A DNA stretch of 17,025 nucleotides from Promethearchaeota archaeon (lineage in GTDB: Archaea > Asgardarchaeota > Lokiarchaeia > Sigyniarchaeales > SOKP01): contig JAHPZI010000011.1 in the NCBI GenBank assembly GCA_019058295.1, forward strand, positions 1-17,025, written 5' to 3'. Shown in pieces: positions 1 to 17,025 of the stretch (position 1 is its first letter; every line of letters starts with the position of its first letter). The position numbers and the translations under genes are program-made. The notes under the pieces were generated by a model. It had not been told where the DNA came from. It did no database searches and worked only from the letters and a program-made list of their open reading frames with translations.

Positions 1-609
1 ATAACTCTCTTAAGGTAGCCAAATGCCTTGTCTGGTAAGTTCAGACGTGCATGAACGGTCCAACGTCCTCCCTATTGTCCCAGCCTTCTGACGATTGAAA
101 TCACACTCCGGCGAACGGTCCGGAGAAGCCCAACGGGACGAGAAGACCCCGTGGAGTTTTACTGCAGCCTGTTGTTGCGGTTTTGAACTGGATACAGAGT
201 GTAGTCGGGAGCGTAGATGCTATCATTTCGGTGGTAGCGGAGCAACTTTGGAATACCGGCTTTCCTTTTTGAAATCGCTAACGGCGTGAAAAGCGTCGGA
301 CACCCGCAGGTGGGCAGTTTGGCTGGGGCGGCTCACTCCAGAAAAAATATCTGGAGTAACCAATGGTCAGCTCAAGCGGGTCAGGAATCCGCTGAAGAGT
401 TTAAGAGCAAAAGCTGGCCTGACTGGATTCTGATCACCAAGGAATCCTGAGGCGAAAGCCTGGTCTAGCGATCCTCTATTGTGCTCATGTGGCTTGTAGA
501 GGTGATAGAAAAATTACCCCGGGGGTAACAGAGTTGTCACGAGTAAGAGCTCATATCGACCTCGTGGCTTGCTTCCTCGATGTCGGCTCTTCCTATCCTG
601 GGAGCGCAC

Positions 610-640
610 ATATCATTTCCGTGTATTGGAAATGAGCGCA
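610..640 (+). other. ~31-nt insertion in the 23S H91 loop (mini-intron or expansion segment)
   Basis: 43 nt lie between CCTGGG (597-602) and CCCAAGGG (646-653), versus 12 nt in E. coli. Contains a perfect 8-bp hairpin TCATTTCC (613-620)/GGAAATGA (628-635). Exact borders are ambiguous because of the GAGCGCA repeat at 602-608 and 634-640. Confidence 0.8.
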
Positions 641-673
641 AAACTCCCAAGGGTGGGGCTGTACGCCCATTAA

Positions 674-716
<43 letters not shown>

Positions 717-894
717 ATTCTATCTGTTGGGCTTGTTGGAAGACTGAGGGTAAGGGAAAATCAGTACGAGAGGAACATTTTGCCGGCGCCTCTGGTGTAC
801 CGGTTGTCTGACAAGGCATTGCCGGGCAGCTACGCGCTAACGGATAAGTGCTGAAAGCATCTAAGCACGAAGCCGGACCCGAAAATAGTCTTCC

Positions 895-1086
895 ACTCCT
901 TTCTCAAATTGTTTGATTGATTTACTGGGATATTTTGGTTGGCTGGATTGATAAGGCATCCTGTGTAAGCCAGAGGTCAATCTAAAAGTTTTTAAAAAGA
1001 AACAAAAAAAGTCATAATCGGAATGGTCGGTGAGTTGGTTGACGTGCGTGGGGGCTGGTGACAGCAACCGCAGAGAAGGGACGAGT
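895..1086 (+). other. Supersized expansion segment ES39 (H98 region) of 23S rRNA
   Basis: About 190 nt between the conserved CCCGAAAATAGTCTTCC and the resumed core GCACCCATAAAAGATGGGGTTG. Closed by CCTTTCTC (898-905)/GAGAAGGG (1073-1080), with internal stems. Confidence 0.85.
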
Positions 1087-1292
1087 GCACCCATAAAAGA
1101 TGGGGTTGGTGAGACGGGGGTGTACGTGCCGAGCTTTCGGGCGAGGTATTTAGCCCGCCGTTCTCAATAGCACGAGTGTTTGGTGTTGAAAGAGGACTCG
1201 TGGTTCAGGCTTAGAGTTTATGGGTTTTAAAAGTGGTGTTGGTAGTTAAGTATTATAGTTGGTAAGTAAAAGGGTAGGGTGTGTTCCTGGAG

Positions 1293-10841: not shown

Positions 10842-12245
10842 TTGATATCAATGACAGAAATAGATTATTTTTTTGACCCTAAGTCAATAGCGATTATTGG
10901 AGCTTCTGATAAGTTAAGATTCGGATACACTACAACAAAATATCTTCTAAATTCAAAATTTAAGACTTTTCCAGTACACTTATATAAAACGGAAATATTA
11001 GGACATAAAACCTATAAAAATATCAAAGATATTCCTGAAAAGATAGAATTAGCAATTCTTTTGGTACCAAATGAGAGAGTCTTGGAAGCAGTTAAAGATT
11101 GTGCCGAAAAAGGAGTAAAAGGAATTATAATTGAATCAGCGGGCTTTGCTGAGACGGGAGAAGAAAGATATATTAATATTCAAAATGAAATTTTAGACAT
11201 CGTTAAAGAAACCAATATTCGTATTATTGGGCCAAATTGCGTTGGATTAACTAATTTTAACAATGAATTTACGAGTGCGGAAGTAGAATTTAATAACACT
11301 TTGAAAGGGAACATTTCTGTTATTGCTCAATCGGGAGTACTCGGCAATGTTTTTATAGATTGGGCATCTGGGCAAAAAATTGGATTTTCTAAAACAATAA
11401 CTCTAGGAAATAAAATTGATGTAGATGAGGTTGATATACTGGATTATTTGAACAATGATCCCGATACTAACGTAATTACGCTTTACTTGGAGGGTACGAA
11501 AAGAGGAAAAGAATTTACACAAATTCTCAAACAAATGACAAAACCAGTCTTAATCCTCAAAAATGGAAGAACTGAGAGCGGTTCAAAGGCCATTAAAAGC
11601 CACACAGCCTCGATGGCTGGGAATGACAAGATTTATGATGCGATTATTAGACAGAGTCGAGGAATTTTTAGAGTAAATAATTTTTATGAGATGTTTAATA
11701 TAGCTCAAGTTTTTTCCACACAACCGTTGCCAAAAGGCAAAAATGTTGCTGTAATTACTGGCTCAGGTAGCTTAGGTATTTTAGCTTGCGACGAAATTGA
11801 GAAGCAAGGGTTATCTTTAGCAAAATTAAATGAAGAAACGATCGCTAAAATAAAAGCTGCAATTCCTAATTGGGTTTCAATAAAAGGAACGATTGATCTG
11901 GGGCCATCTATGGCTACAAGCTTCATACCTTCACTAAAAGCTATACTCAAAGATAATACCGTCAATAGCTTGATATTTATATTTTGTATCCCAAGAGGTC
12001 CATTACAAGAATTTAAACCATTAAGTAGTATTATAGAGTCCTACTTTCGAATAATGAAGAGATTATCAAATAAAGTAGACAAGCCATGCATATGTGTCTG
12101 TTTTGGTTCACGATGGGTTTTTGATTTTGTATTAAAAAATGCCTCTAAATTTGATATTCCTGTAATGACTCGGATAAAGCACGCTATTAAAGCTTTTAAA
12201 ATGATGTATGAATATGAACAATACTTAAAAAATAAAGAATTATAA
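10842..12245 (+). CDS. ADP-forming acyl/acetate-CoA ligase, alpha subunit (ACD alpha)
   Basis: PKSIAIIGAS (CoA binding), SAGFAE, IIGPNCVG, AQSG, LGNKIDV, LYLEG, phospho-His SHTASMAG, TGSGSLG. No ATP-grasp beta domain. An ATG at 10851 is an alternative start. Confidence 0.9.
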   Translation: MISMTEIDYFFDPKSIAIIGASDKLRFGYTTTKYLLNSKFKTFPVHLYKTEILGHKTYKNIKDIPEKIELAILLVPNERVLEAVKDCAEKGVKGIIIESAGFAETGEERYINIQNEILDIVKETNIRIIGPNCVGLTNFNNEFTSAEVEFNNTLKGNISVIAQSGVLGNVFIDWASGQKIGFSKTITLGNKIDVDEVDILDYLNNDPDTNVITLYLEGTKRGKEFTQILKQMTKPVLILKNGRTESGSKAIKSHTASMAGNDKIYDAIIRQSRGIFRVNNFYEMFNIAQVFSTQPLPKGKNVAVITGSGSLGILACDEIEKQGLSLAKLNEETIAKIKAAIPNWVSIKGTIDLGPSMATSFIPSLKAILKDNTVNSLIFIFCIPRGPLQEFKPLSSIIESYFRIMKRLSNKVDKPCICVCFGSRWVFDFVLKNASKFDIPVMTRIKHAIKAFKMMYEYEQYLKNKEL

Positions 12246-12320: not shown

Positions 12321-12713
12321 ATGCCAAATTTTATAGAAATAAACGAAACATATAGAGATTGGTATTGTGAAGAGATTTTTGAGGATTATTTGAATGGTCA
12401 AATTAATTTAGAAGAATTTATCTTTAAATTAGATTATAATAAAATTCAAGAGCAAATAGAATTATTTAATGCCTTAAATCTCATAATGACTAAAGAATAT
12501 CCACATAAATGCTACAACGAGAATTGCCAAAAAAAACTCTATTTTTCTGATACGTATAAAAATGCAAAAGAACATTTAAAATTACATTTAAAAGAATTTG
12601 TAAAAATATGGGTTGCTCCTTATAATTTAAACCAGCAAAAAAATCTGAATGTTACTATTCCGTTTTATTGTTGTTATTGTTTCAAAAAGAAAAAAGTTTT
12701 GGACTCTAAGTGA
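12321..12713 (+). CDS. Hypothetical protein with a putative Zn-binding motif (C-x4-C ... CC-x-C)
   Basis: 130-aa ATG ORF containing CYNENC and YCCYCF. Confidence 0.65.
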   Translation: MPNFIEINETYRDWYCEEIFEDYLNGQINLEEFIFKLDYNKIQEQIELFNALNLIMTKEYPHKCYNENCQKKLYFSDTYKNAKEHLKLHLKEFVKIWVAPYNLNQQKNLNVTIPFYCCYCFKKKKVLDSK

Positions 12714-12737: not shown

Positions 12738-13535
12738 CTACGGAAACAGTATACCATATTTCTTTTTATATAAATATATAAAAATACAGGTGATCCCTAA
12801 TACATAGAAGGAGAATATAGAAGTAAATATTTCCGGAAAAATGTCTTCTGTATTGGTTTCAGCTATTAAGCGCGCAATTTGGTCAATGCTATTAAGAAAT
12901 ATTAGATAAAACAAGAATCCCAGAAAAAGATATCGTTTGCTTAATGCTATTTTTCGATGTATTATAATAAATAATTGAACTCCTGCCATAACACCGTGCA
13001 AAATTGGTCCTCCTATAAGAGTTCCAACATCTTTTACTATGGTTGCAAGCCATATTGACACCATGATAAATCCATAAACAGATATACAAGTAATTGAATT
13101 AAGAAGGACTGATTCAAATTTATTAATTAACGTTAAACTGATAAGAATTAATGTGATATATGTAGTATAGACAAGTGGTTCAAAATCGTGAACTATGAAA
13201 AAGAAAAATATCCAATACCAAATTAATAGACCTAAGAGCGCTAAACCCATAATTCTTACTGCTGTGGAAAATTCCTTTTGTTTAATAACTATCGTTTTAG
13301 GTTCTAATTTTTTAATATAATTATTTAAATCTTCAGATATGGGTTCTTGATTTATTAATTTCTTCGTAATCTGTATAATAACTTTCTCGCTAATAATTTC
13401 AATTTCTTTATCGGAAATTTTTAATTTGCTTGAAGTGTGACCTGAGGGCTCTGTTCCCTTTAATTTTTCCCTCCACTCAATAAAATCCTTACTACCTAAT
13501 ATTTGTTTGATTTCTTCTGAAATCTCTAATCCCAA
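12738..13535 (-). CDS. Hypothetical membrane protein (charged ~90-aa N-terminus, then about 6 TM helices)
   Basis: 265-aa ORF with a TTG start. Topology inferred from the hydropathy pattern read by eye. Confidence 0.7.
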   Translation of the reverse strand: MGLEISEEIKQILGSKDFIEWREKLKGTEPSGHTSSKLKISDKEIEIISEKVIIQITKKLINQEPISEDLNNYIKKLEPKTIVIKQKEFSTAVRIMGLALLGLLIWYWIFFFFIVHDFEPLVYTTYITLILISLTLINKFESVLLNSITCISVYGFIMVSIWLATIVKDVGTLIGGPILHGVMAGVQLFIIIHRKIALSKRYLFLGFLFYLIFLNSIDQIARLIAETNTEDIFPEIFTSIFSFYVLGITCIFIYLYKKKYGILFP

Positions 13536-13901: not shown

Positions 13902-14948
13902 TTACTCTACTTTAACAATCCATCCATATTCATCTTCGATTTCTAATCTTTGAATTCCCGTTAATAAGTCGTAAAGTTTTATTGTTAATTCGCCCGGTTC
14001 TCCATTATTCCAGATTTTTTTTTTATCCTCTAAAACCACAGATCCAATTGGCGTGATAACAGCAGCAGTCCCAGTACAAAATGCTTCAGTACAAGTGTCT
14101 TCAAATAATTCCTTGTAAGATATATTTCTTTCTTCAACCTCTATTCCCAATTTCTTCTTTGCTATTTCTAAAACAGATTTTCGTGTGATTCCTGGTAAAA
14201 TTGTACCAGCTGCTTTAGGTGTGGCAAGTTTTCCATTGATGACCGCAAAAAAATTAGCTGTTCCAACTTCATCGATATATTCCATATTCACTGCGTCTAA
14301 ATATATAATCTGGGCAAATCCTTTAGCTTTCGTTTCTTTTGCAGGTTTCATTGTTGGAGCATAATTGCAACAAGTCTTCGCATAACCTGATCCGCCAGGA
14401 GCGGCTCTCGTATATTTTTTCGAAATTTCTAAATCTATTGCTTTAAAACCCTCTGGGAAATAAGGACCAACGGGGACTGTAAAAATTATTAATTTATTTT
14501 CTTCCGCTGGTGCAACACCTAAAATTGGACCATTCCCTATTAATATTGGCCTTATATATAACGCACCACCACTATCATAGGGAGGAACATAATCTTTATT
14601 GGCTTTAACGACTTGTTTAACATTATCAACAAATTTATCTACATCATAATTAGGTAATAGCATCCTATCGGCGCTGTCGTTAAATCTCTTTCCATTTTCA
14701 TGTGGTCTAAATAATACAATTTCGCCAGTTTTCGCTCTTAAGGCTTTCATACCTTCAAAAATCCCTTGTCCATAGTTAAGTATGCAAGCTCCAGGCGAAA
14801 TCTCAAAAGGTCCAAAAGGAACTAATTTTCCTTCGCTCCATTTACCATCCTTATAATCTGAAACAAACATCGTCTTAGTTTCAATAAAATTGAAACCTAA
14901 ATTATAAAAATCAATGTCACTTGCTTTCATATTTATCAACTTTCTCAT
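13902..14948 (-). CDS. ilvE: Branched-chain amino acid aminotransferase (PLP fold IV)
   Basis: YGQGIFEGMKA, LFRP, LYIRP, PLP Lys in AKTCCNY, EVGTANFF, ILPGITR, EAFCTGTAAVITP. Confidence 0.95.
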   Translation of the reverse strand: MRKLINMKASDIDFYNLGFNFIETKTMFVSDYKDGKWSEGKLVPFGPFEISPGACILNYGQGIFEGMKALRAKTGEIVLFRPHENGKRFNDSADRMLLPNYDVDKFVDNVKQVVKANKDYVPPYDSGGALYIRPILIGNGPILGVAPAEENKLIIFTVPVGPYFPEGFKAIDLEISKKYTRAAPGGSGYAKTCCNYAPTMKPAKETKAKGFAQIIYLDAVNMEYIDEVGTANFFAVINGKLATPKAAGTILPGITRKSVLEIAKKKLGIEVEERNISYKELFEDTCTEAFCTGTAAVITPIGSVVLEDKKKIWNNGEPGELTIKLYDLLTGIQRLEIEDEYGWIVKVE

Positions 14949-15071
14949 TTAATTGATAGAGTCATTATATGAAGCGGTAACTAAAAAATTTTATTAAAAA
15001 TTTTAAATGGATTTAGAGTCTGCTATTAACTCTATAAAAAGATTTTTTAAAATAATTAGGTTATCTTTCAT

Positions 15072-15971
15072 ATGTCCTTACAAAAAATGACTACAAAAAA
15101 AATAATAGAAAAAAAGCAAAAAGGCGAAAAAATCGTAACTATCACCTCCTATGACTATTCCATGGCGAAAATCGTTGACGATAGCAATATAGATCTAATT
15201 CTCATAGGAGATACTCTTTCTATGGTAATGCTAGGGCATCAAAACACATTACCGGTAACTATGGATGAGATGATTCATCATACTAAAGCTGTTTCCCGTG
15301 CAGTGAAGAATGCGTTAATTGTTGGCGACATGCCATTTCTATCATATAAAGTTAATATCGTAGAAGCAGTTAAAAACGCAGGAAGATTTATTCAGGAAGG
15401 TGGTGCTGAAGCTGTAAAAGTTGAAGGAGGTACGGAGATCTGCCCCACCATAAGAGCTATGATTGATGCTGATATTGAAGTAATGGGGCATATAGGATTA
15501 ACACCACAAGCGATATATAGATTTGGAGGATTTATGGTTCAAGGTAAAACAATCGAAGCTGCTAAGAAATTAATTATGGATGCTATTAATTTACAGGAGA
15601 CTGGTGTGTTTTCTATTGTTTTAGAGACTATCCCTTGGCAAATAGCAAAATTGATTACAAGTGCTGTAGATATACCAACGATCGGTATCGGCGCAGGCCC
15701 TTATTGTGACGGGCAAATACTTGTGATACATGATATGCTGGGAATCTTTACTGATTTCAAACCAAAATTCGTAAAGCATTTTGGTAATGTTGGAGAATCA
15801 ATTAGAAATGCTTTAAAAGGATATAGAGAAGAAGTTGAAAAGGGGATATATCCAGGACTCGAACATTCATATGAATTTCCACAGAATGAAGTGGATGATG
15901 TTAATGAATGGTTTGAAAAAGTTGATATTAATGAAGAAGCTTTGAAATTAAATAAAATGATACCAAAATGA
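15072..15971 (+). CDS. panB: 3-methyl-2-oxobutanoate hydroxymethyltransferase (ketopantoate hydroxymethyltransferase)
   Basis: [62 protein letters not shown]. Confidence 0.97.
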
Positions 15972-16248
15972 AGATTTTATATCTTTTAAGATGTTTTAAT
16001 TGCTTGAATCTATACACTTTATTTATATTTTTTTAAAATTATCACTTCTACCCAAAAAGAGCTATTAATCGCAATTACTTTTAGTCAATTTTTTTAAAAT
16101 TTTACTAGATCTCGATTTATTACTAAAATTTTCTCTTTATAAATAAAATTATAAAGTTGTATTAATAGATCTATCTTATATAAAAACGAAAATTGTTAAA
16201 AATTTTTAAATTATTACTTTTAACAAAATAGATAACGGTTGACTTGTA

Positions 16249-17025
16249 ATGGCTGATGAATATGATTATCTTTTTAAATCAATAGTAGTTGGAGATGGAG
16301 GAGTTGGTAAAACTGCTCTAACTCTACGATTTTCAAAAGGTTTTTTCACAGAAGATTATAAAATGACTATTGGTGTTGATTTTCACGTTAAAACTATTTC
16401 CATCGATACACAAGAAGAAGGTCAAATAATGGTAAAATTACAAATATGGGATACGGGTGGTCAAGAAAGATTTAGCTCAATAAGACCTATGTATTATAGA
16501 GGCGCTTTAGGAGCCTTATTAATTTTCGATCTCACTTCATATGAGAGTTTTGAACATTTGCCTCAATGGATTGAAGAAATTAGGTCAAATATAAAAAATG
16601 AAGTGCCTTTCCTTCTCGTTGGAAATAAAAGCGATTTAGTTGATATTAGAGCCGTTTCTTTAGAGGAAATCAATGATTTTACAGAAAAATTTAATTTATA
16701 TTATATGGAAACTTCAGCTAAAACAGGTGAGGGTGTAGGCGATTGCTTTTACATTCTTGCTTGTCTAATGGTCGGTTCAGGAGTTCCGGATCAACTTGTG
16801 TCAAAAGGAATTGTTAGTAGCCCTGGTAATGTGCTTGCTGCGACTTCAGCTCCAGTTGCCACTCCTTTAACTCAACAAGAACCAGAAGAATTTCTCGCCT
16901 ATGTAATAGAACCTGAACCACAAAATGATTTTGTAGCTCCACCGGTTCCTGAACCACAAAATGACTTAGCAGCTCCACCGGTTCCTGAACCACAAAATGA
17001 CTTAGCAGCTCCACCGGTTCCTGAA
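16249..17025 (+). CDS. Rab-like small GTPase with a Pro-rich tandem-repeat C-terminal extension (3' truncated by the window end)
   Basis: Manual translation gives 259 codons with no stop: MADEYDYLFKSIVVGDGGVGKT (G1)...TIGVDF (G2/RabF1)...KLQIWDTGGQERFSSIRPMYYRGA (RabF2, G3, RabF3, RabF4)...LIFDLT (RabF5)...GNKSD (G4)...ETSAK (G5). Absent from the ORF track because it has no stop codon in the window. Confidence 0.96.
   Translation, partial: MADEYDYLFKSIVVGDGGVGKTALTLRFSKGFFTEDYKMTIGVDFHVKTISIDTQEEGQIMVKLQIWDTGGQERFSSIRPMYYRGALGALLIFDLTSYESFEHLPQWIEEIRSNIKNEVPFLLVGNKSDLVDIRAVSLEEINDFTEKFNLYYMETSAKTGEGVGDCFYILACLMVGSGVPDQLVSKGIVSSPGNVLAATSAPVATPLTQQEPEEFLAYVIEPEPQNDFVAPPVPEPQNDLAAPPVPEPQNDLAAPPVPE
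16912..17025 (+). repeat. 36-bp coding tandem repeat, at least 3 copies, encoding PEPQND(F/L)(V/A)APPV
   Basis: Units at 16912-16947, 16948-16983 and 16984-17019, plus the start of a fourth. Units 2 and 3 are identical (CCTGAACCACAAAATGACTTAGCAGCTCCACCGGTT). Confidence 0.95.

Follow-up and report, generated by a model that had tools for sequence, protein, structure and literature searches.

The stretch of DNA considered here (the window) makes up the first 17,025 nt of scaffold JAHPZI010000011.1 (24.5 kb; C11 below), from a Promethearchaeota archaeon assembly (GCA_019058295.1) of 3.2 Mb in 30 scaffolds, with 31% GC and 79% complete. It begins within a truncated archaeal 23S rRNA gene and ends within a gene for a Rab-like small GTPase, the subject of this report, located just downstream of panB (Table 1). 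The GTPase frame reaches the last base of the window without a stop, and there the first of two 100-N scaffold gaps begins. It carries on past this gap, and past the second one 450 nt further on, to a stop after C11:18176, with the translation of the last segment terminating in IICSQCGAMLSSDYAFCNKCGSKL. In each of the three segments (16249–17025, 17126–17575, and 17676–18176) just one frame is fully open, in AT-rich DNA. Both gaps sit within tandem repeats. The first adjoins a repeat with a 36-nt unit encoding PEPQNDLAAPPV, which contains the APPVPEP motif conserved in the orthogroup of the Lokiarchaeum protein KKK40223 (see below); the second is at a repeat with a 66-nt unit, encoding a Lys/Glu repeat. 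A 363-nt contig from a metagenome run of another sample in the same study (X2) carries the Pro-rich repeat and, in frame with it, the start of the second segment. Together the three segments form one gene of some 580 codons, and the window holds its 5' third.

The original prediction, made from the window, placed the end of the gene at 16800 and described it as missed by the open reading frame (ORF) track. The first of these was mistaken: at 16800 it is only the G domain that ends, the ORF runs to 17025 and on, and what had been read was the first third of the gene. The simplest explanation for the second is that there is no stop codon inside the window; the track lists the ORF only as 3'-open. 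Short contigs from a metatranscriptome run (X15) fall on 16441–17010, one of them (16671–16819) with a single difference, DNA carry-over being possible. A scan of the upstream spacer for bacterial-type promoters gave results no better than shuffled sequences, this type of scan not being relevant to archaea.

Table 1. Features of the Rab-like GTPase gene and its surroundings. Plain numbers are window positions, other contigs are named, and tail islands are numbered as in P0002, the 579-aa orthologue from sister genome G007.
Feature	Position	Strand	Remarks
23S rRNA, 3' part	1–1187		Truncated by contig start; Rfam archaeal LSU, 856 bits, model positions 2019–2987
Aminotransferase and panB side of neighborhood	13902–15971		
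panB (ketopantoate hydroxymethyltransferase)	15072–15971	+	Upstream neighbor; Pfam 373 bits
Intergenic spacer, panB to GTPase gene	15972–16248	.	277 nt, AT-rich; covered by X2 contig
Rab-like GTPase gene, 5' part	16249–17025	+	259 codons; ATG start at 16249; open at window end
Small-GTPase (G) domain	aa 1–180; 16249–16788	+	Pfam Ras, PDB matches, predicted fold
EYDYLFK, N-terminal	aa 4–10; 16258–16278	+	As in Rab1, Rab8, and Rab11-type proteins
P-loop (G1) GDGGVGKT	aa 15–22; 16291–16314	+	
Rab family motif region, RabF1 to RabF5-like	16369–16536	+	
RabF1 IGVDF	aa 41–45; 16369–16383	+	Exact
RabF2 KLQIW	aa 63–67; 16435–16449	+	Exact
G3 DTGGQ	aa 68–72; 16450–16464	+	Catalytic Gln72
RabF3-like RFSSI	aa 74–78; 16468–16482	+	Near match
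RabF4 YYRGA	aa 82–86; 16492–16506	+	Exact
RabF5-like LIFDLT	aa 91–96; 16519–16536	+	Near match
G4 NKSD	aa 126–129; 16624–16635	+	
G5 SAK	aa 156–158; 16714–16722	+	
Conserved segment past G domain, CLMVGSGVPDQLVSKGIVSSPG	16762–16830	+	70–99% column conservation, 116 members
Tandem repeat encoding (PEPQNDLAAPPV)n	16912–17025	+	3.2 copies; Tandem Repeats Finder period 36, 96% matches
Scaffold gaps in GTPase gene	C11:17026–17125 and C11:17576–17675		Runs of 100 N each
Tail island CLM.GSGVPDQLIS.G.V..PG	172–194		
Tail island APPVPEP			1–5 units per member
Tail island F.FKTP..IL	296–306		
Tail island YKPK..PF..N.P.PAP.PE.FQ	332–355		
Tail island SL.DY.PE.I.SKK..KK.EKQKKK	361–385		Then Lys/Glu-rich stretch
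Tail island PSLFQ.L.QK	481–490		LFQTLSQK
Tail island F.PF	499–502		
Tail island LRIIPN..D	516–525		
Terminal C4 zinc ribbon IIC..CGA.LSSDYAFCNKCG..L	C-terminal end		
P0393, 202-aa protein	C11:18281–18886 (L047:1282–1887)	-	Convergent, directly downstream of GTPase gene
Pyridoxal phosphate (PLP)-dependent decarboxylase side of neighborhood	C11:19148–20323		
G026 orthologue of GTPase gene	L049:7022–8836		

The G domain is matched by the Pfam Ras family (PF00071) over aa 10–171 with 182.1 bits (E 7e-54, cut-off 21.6), and the only NCBIfam match is to the generic small_GTP domain. All of the motifs listed in the original prediction were located in the frame of the ORF from 16249, and the G1, switch I Thr (Thr40), G3, G4, and G5 residues are invariant among 26 orthologues. 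The canonical RabF3 and RabF5 sequences are RFRSIT and LVYDIT. The five RabF motifs that had been claimed are here three exact ones (IGVDF, KLQIW, and YYRGA) and two near matches only (RFSSI and LIFDLT); the orthologue KKK40223 has been called positive for all five. The proposed Rab1/Rab11-like N-terminus is borne out by the alignments, in which [ED]YD[YF]LFK is common to the GTPase and its Rab matches in the PDB. Human Rab30 is the best of these at 163 bits, followed by Rab1A/B, Ypt1, Rab11, Rab8, and Rab43 (146–163 bits for Rab30, Rab1A/B, Rab11, and Ypt1). Judged by these matches, the G domain is a member of the Ras superfamily with the full set of nucleotide-binding and catalytic motifs, and its switch and interswitch surface is of Rab type.

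What makes the gene interesting is its conserved tail with the zinc ribbon, most of which lies beyond 16800. The tail is about 400 aa long, and its conservation was assessed from 116 full-length homologues. The segment CLMVGSGVPDQLVSKGIVSSPG makes up the end of alpha5 plus a short helix (helices 163–175 and 181–185 in the AlphaFold2 (AF2) model) and is without a Rab counterpart. Further on, the disordered part has about eight short conserved motifs (islands in Table 1), and the terminal C4 ribbon is conserved to the same degree as the G domain; it is found in 120 of the 120 best homologues and is recognized by Pfam Zn_Ribbon_1 at 27.2 bits (cut-off 25). In the AF2 model, made with 26 orthologues, the folded G domain is followed by disorder at 198–362 and 457–550, on either side of a single Lys/Glu-rich helix of 82 residues (373–454, pLDDT 76–93), and the chain ends in a small ribbon (555–579, pLDDT 84–91). 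At the start of the helix is a polybasic patch (KK..KK.EKQKKK), and in 64 members the basic segment carries a net charge of +10 in the median, with a maximum of 10–13 Lys/Arg per 20 residues. The motif-bearing tail, the Lys/Glu helix, and the ribbon are all encoded on C11 past the window end. No prenylation motif (CC, CXC, CCXX, or CAAX) was found at the C-terminus of the complete orthologues, which have ends like ...FCNKCGSKL, the last Cys being 5–7 residues before the C-terminus and belonging to the C4 ribbon. A literature search on Asgard small GTPases, disorder, and zinc found no paper describing the tail of the KKK40223 family.

Among the Ras-type GTPases, about three of 39 have a C-terminal ribbon, as compared with about 1% of all ORFs of the genome. 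Two short Ras-family paralogues, at G000:C19:5853-6470 (+, 205 aa) and G000:C2:181604-182200 (-, 198 aa), have a ribbon of the form C..C-x10-C..CG directly after the G domain, and group as their own clade in a quick tree (aLRT 99). NPF is a ligand motif of the eukaryotic EH domain. Tails in the window protein's subfamily have only two or three PF motifs, not enriched over shuffles; those in the branch of G026, P0280, and P0284 have 10–12 xPF motifs, including 4–6 NPF, a number reached by at most one in 2000 shuffles. The EH domain itself (Pfam PF12763) had no match in four genomes searched (G000, G007, G026, and G024), in a search where control genomes gave none either.

Orthologues of the gene were found in 27 of 31 relatives of the order, at 54–100% identity and 218–400 bits, with a sharp gap to the paralogues (at most 49% and 156 bits). 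In most of 30 relatives searched, the best match has an open frame of 484–662 aa, and in 12 or more the orthologue is ungapped, a single ORF with the same motif order. The orthologue in the sister genome G007, P0002, has a G domain 100% identical to that of the window protein. The gene family is single-copy and occurs across the whole order. More widely, at least 558 database proteins match the window protein, and relatives of the gene are found in at least 259 species genomes; these genomes and the closest database proteins bear Promethearchaeota/Lokiarchaeota-type labels of metagenome-assembled genomes (MAGs). The 80 loci retained for listing are titled Promethearchaeota, other named Asgard groups, or unclassified "uncultured archaeon" MAGs. 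Five short forms of 180–240 aa with no tail (P0140, P0149, P0154, P0156, and P0159), at 72–76% identity, are labeled Hodarchaeota, Heimdallarchaeota, or Promethearchaeota. Their nesting in the long-form clade points to some lineages having lost the tail or having a short paralogue that is derived.

KKK40223 (LCGC14_0681700, Lokiarchaeum sp. GC14_75; P0088 here, 587 aa) can be aligned with P0002 over its full length, identity being 51% overall and rising to about 88% within the G domain. The order of the tail motifs is the same in both, as is the zinc ribbon that ends the protein, and KKK40223 is an orthologue of the window gene in a different species, with different repeat copy numbers. The G domain is thus not new as a type, and the gene is by homology an ordinary new member of a known, partly published family.

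Several lines of evidence bear on the origin of the gene. The sister genome G007 shares the gene order of C11 for about 17 kb (protein identity 86–99%) and has the same panB-GTPase junction, as does G006. A 2431-nt contig from run X2 spans 15400–16371 with four differences and so bridges 15970–16250, where a chimeric join had been named as a possible refutation; there is none. The GC content of the gene region is in line with that of the genome. A maximum-likelihood tree (LG+C20+F+G4, posterior mean site frequency) was constructed from 88 G domains, including 12 eukaryotic Rabs. The window GTPase falls in a clade of 33 sequences, all Asgard (ultrafast bootstrap 99 / SH-aLRT 93), which joins a group with all 12 sampled eukaryotic Rabs at a moderate 93/81, the query not being nested there. 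Sampling was by similarity to the query and included no eukaryotic Ras, Rho, Ran, or Arf, so that sisterhood to Rabs specifically is not demonstrable from this tree. Identity to the window G domain is 55–93% for Asgard MAG proteins and 46–51% for the best eukaryotic Rabs. The source genome has 58 Pfam Ras matches, an Asgard hallmark. The gene is, on these comparisons, native to a Loki-type Asgard (Promethearchaeota) archaeon, as the original prediction had it when it described a Rab-like GTPase of an Asgard archaeon beside panB and an archaeal 23S gene and argued against eukaryotic contamination.

The GTPase gene lies among genes related to coenzyme A (CoA), with a class IV aminotransferase (ilvE-like) and panB upstream and a PLP-dependent decarboxylase (MfnA-like) downstream, an arrangement that fits pantothenate/CoA precursor genes. 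MazG and NrdD are found further downstream. In the 80 related loci, ilvE is conserved near the gene in 67, the PLP decarboxylase in 69, and panB in 57 (panB being counted within the fetched 4-kb flanks). The protein encoded directly downstream, P0393, has a zinc ribbon at each end, the N-terminal one together with a basic stretch, and a beta-sandwich in the middle; a homologue is found directly downstream and convergent in 79 of the 80. A Foldseek search of the P0393 model against the PDB gave generic beta-sandwich matches only (CBM21, CBM56, and FN3), with E values of 1.2e-3 or higher and TM scores on the query of 0.37 or lower. Elsewhere in the window, the ORFs at 12321–12713 (+, 130 aa) and 12738–13535 (-, 265 aa) match no Pfam family and are 89–95% identical to their counterparts in G007. 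That genome has an extra ORF of 389 aa between its homologues of 12321–12713 and 10842–12245, which is absent from the window.

Taken together, the sequence comparisons show a single gene for a Rab-like Asgard GTPase, probably one in which a GTP switch is positioned by a tail with a basic helix, a zinc ribbon, and docking motifs. The G domain is predicted to cycle between GTP and GDP and to offer a Rab-like effector surface. Eukaryotic Rabs have a short hypervariable region and a prenyl anchor, for which the tail would stand in. Through its polybasic helix and its zinc ribbon the tail may tether the switch to a surface or partner, candidates being the membrane and a protein, for example P0393, the neighbor with two zinc ribbons; the disordered, motif-studded part could act as a long multivalent docking arm. 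No finding speaks against the identity of the gene; a number of points weigh against the proposed mechanism. The tail appears dispensable in some lineages, since tail-less forms of 180–196 aa exist in other Asgard groups, nested among long forms. P0393 is not adjacent in the more distant orthologues (G026 and G024), and the GTPase/P0393 pair is convergent and hence not co-transcribed. Because of this, and because the whole region is syntenic in the lineage, the adjacency is weak evidence, and as to binding may serve as a lead only. The copy numbers of the repeats cannot be read in the source genome because of the scaffold gaps. Finally, nucleic-acid binders, too, typically have zinc ribbons and Lys/Glu tracts.

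That last point is the basis of a rival explanation, in which the G domain is a switch, but the Lys/Glu helix and C4 ribbon target DNA, RNA, or the ribosome, and the protein has nothing to do with membrane biology. Besides the general frequency of such features in nucleic-acid-binding proteins, it could draw on weak, sub-cut-off Pfam matches in the tail to a CAF1A acidic/K-E region (21 bits) and a TFIIB ribbon, and on the failure to detect TRAPP Bet3, TBC, or EH domains, in searches without a positive control. However, the G domain retains a Rab-type effector surface, no nucleic-acid-binding domain scores above threshold, the tail as a whole is net acidic (-8 over 360 aa), and its Pro-rich and xPF-type motifs are of a sort typically used for docking between proteins, so this explanation is considered unlikely. 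The protein might instead be a polarity, cytoskeleton, or motility switch, like MglA or Ras/Rho, with the Pro-rich repeats recruiting actin regulators. The APPVPEP repeats do resemble profilin, SH3, and EVH1-type ligands. Cultured Asgards have protrusions and no internal compartments (PMC10933270), and where Asgard Rab-likes belong with respect to Ras, Rho, and Rab has been reported as unresolved (PMC4915359). The switch and interswitch motifs are specifically of Rab type, though, and a role of this kind likewise seems improbable.

Two other explanations concern the gene itself rather than its role. In one, the G domain would be a stand-alone short protein and the frames past the gaps one or two other genes; the two N runs interrupt the frame in this assembly, there is an ATG (MPETILSKK...) inside segment 17126–17575, and short tail-less orthologues exist in other Asgard groups. 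Against this, the second and third segments are open from their first base in a single frame each, in DNA of 31% GC, ungapped orthologues in at least 12 relatives are single ORFs with the same motif order, the X2 contig joins the repeat to the second segment in frame, and G domain and ribbon are paired in all 120 top homologues; separate genes are very improbable. In the other, the gene would come from a eukaryotic contaminant, a chimeric contig, or recent transfer from a eukaryote, for which it can be said that the best solved-structure matches are eukaryotic Rabs at about 50% identity, and that the best in-genome paralogue (156 bits) is below human Rab30 (163 bits). Synteny with the sister genome (panB included), the bridging contig from another sample, the Asgard-only clade with all sampled eukaryotic Rabs outside it, and the higher identity to Asgard MAG proteins than to the best eukaryotic Rabs led us to reject all three versions. 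The matching GC content and the orthologues in 27 of 31 relatives agree with this, and eukaryotic Rabs are without such a tail and zinc ribbon. A eukaryotic source for the gene is accordingly regarded as ruled out as far as these analyses reach, with next to no probability left for it.

The probable arrangement, a Rab-like switch positioned by its own tail, can be compared with known proteins. The G domains of eukaryotic Rab1/Ypt1, Rab8, Rab11, and Rab30 are about 46–51% identical to that of the window protein and have in common with it the EYDYLFK start, IGVDF, KLQIW, YYRGA, the catalytic Gln, NKxD, and SAK. Their tails, however, are about 30–40 aa long with a prenylatable Cys, whereas those of the window family are about 400 aa with no CC, CXC, or CAAX. 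Because it has no prenylation motif and branches outside the eukaryotic Rabs, the window protein is Rab-like and not a Rab sensu stricto. Searches for RabGAP-TBC (PF00566) and TRAPP Bet3 (PF04051) found no match in G000, G007, G026, or G024, where controls gave none either; GDI, REP, and GGTase were not searched. K-Ras4B and Rit/Rin bind membranes by means of a polybasic region at the C-terminus, and the window family resembles them in having a Lys/Arg cluster C-terminal to the G domain. Unlike theirs, its patch is about 190 residues past the G domain and forms part of a long helix, with a disordered stretch and the zinc ribbon coming after it, and a lipid-modification motif is absent. Among Asgard proteins, a Thorarchaeota Rab (PDB 7EZB/7EZD/7EZE; 148 bits for 7EZB against the query) combines a Rab-like G domain and RabF-like motifs with an intrinsic GTPase activity that has been measured (PMC10933270). 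It is a single domain of 182 aa with a truncated C-terminus, in contrast to the long tail and ribbon of the window protein, and is a paralogue-level relative and not an orthologue.

KKK40223 was presented as an exemplar archaeal Rab-like GTPase, found positive for all five RabF motifs by Rabifier, and only its G domain was modeled (Surkont and Pereira-Leal, 2016; PMC4915359). Archaeal Rab-likes have been stated to be without a C-terminal extension (PMC4915359; Tran et al., 2024, PMC10933270), and no polybasic region or other membrane-association signal was reported for them (PMC4915359). From the alignments presented here, this generalization does not fit the KKK40223 family, including KKK40223 itself. 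It is possible, although we hold this only tentatively and think it rather doubtful, that the tail acts as a hypervariable domain and lipid anchor in one, its polybasic helix and nearly invariant zinc ribbon attaching this most Rab-like of Lokiarchaeial GTPases to the membrane or to P0393, with short motifs (APPVPEP, xPF/NPF, and LRIIPN) recruiting effectors in a eukaryote-style docking network that predates prenylation. If so, the published view of archaeal Rab-likes as lacking a localization signal would be overturned. Work on the origin of eukaryotes has yet to settle by what means Asgard small GTPases find their place in the cell when they are not prenylated. The family that supplied the textbook example of a Rab-like protein from archaea has, in its full-length form, an extended tail along with a polybasic patch, and its terminus is rich in cysteine; because these are features published as missing, and because orthologues are present in 27 of 31 related genomes, the question becomes one that can be tested.

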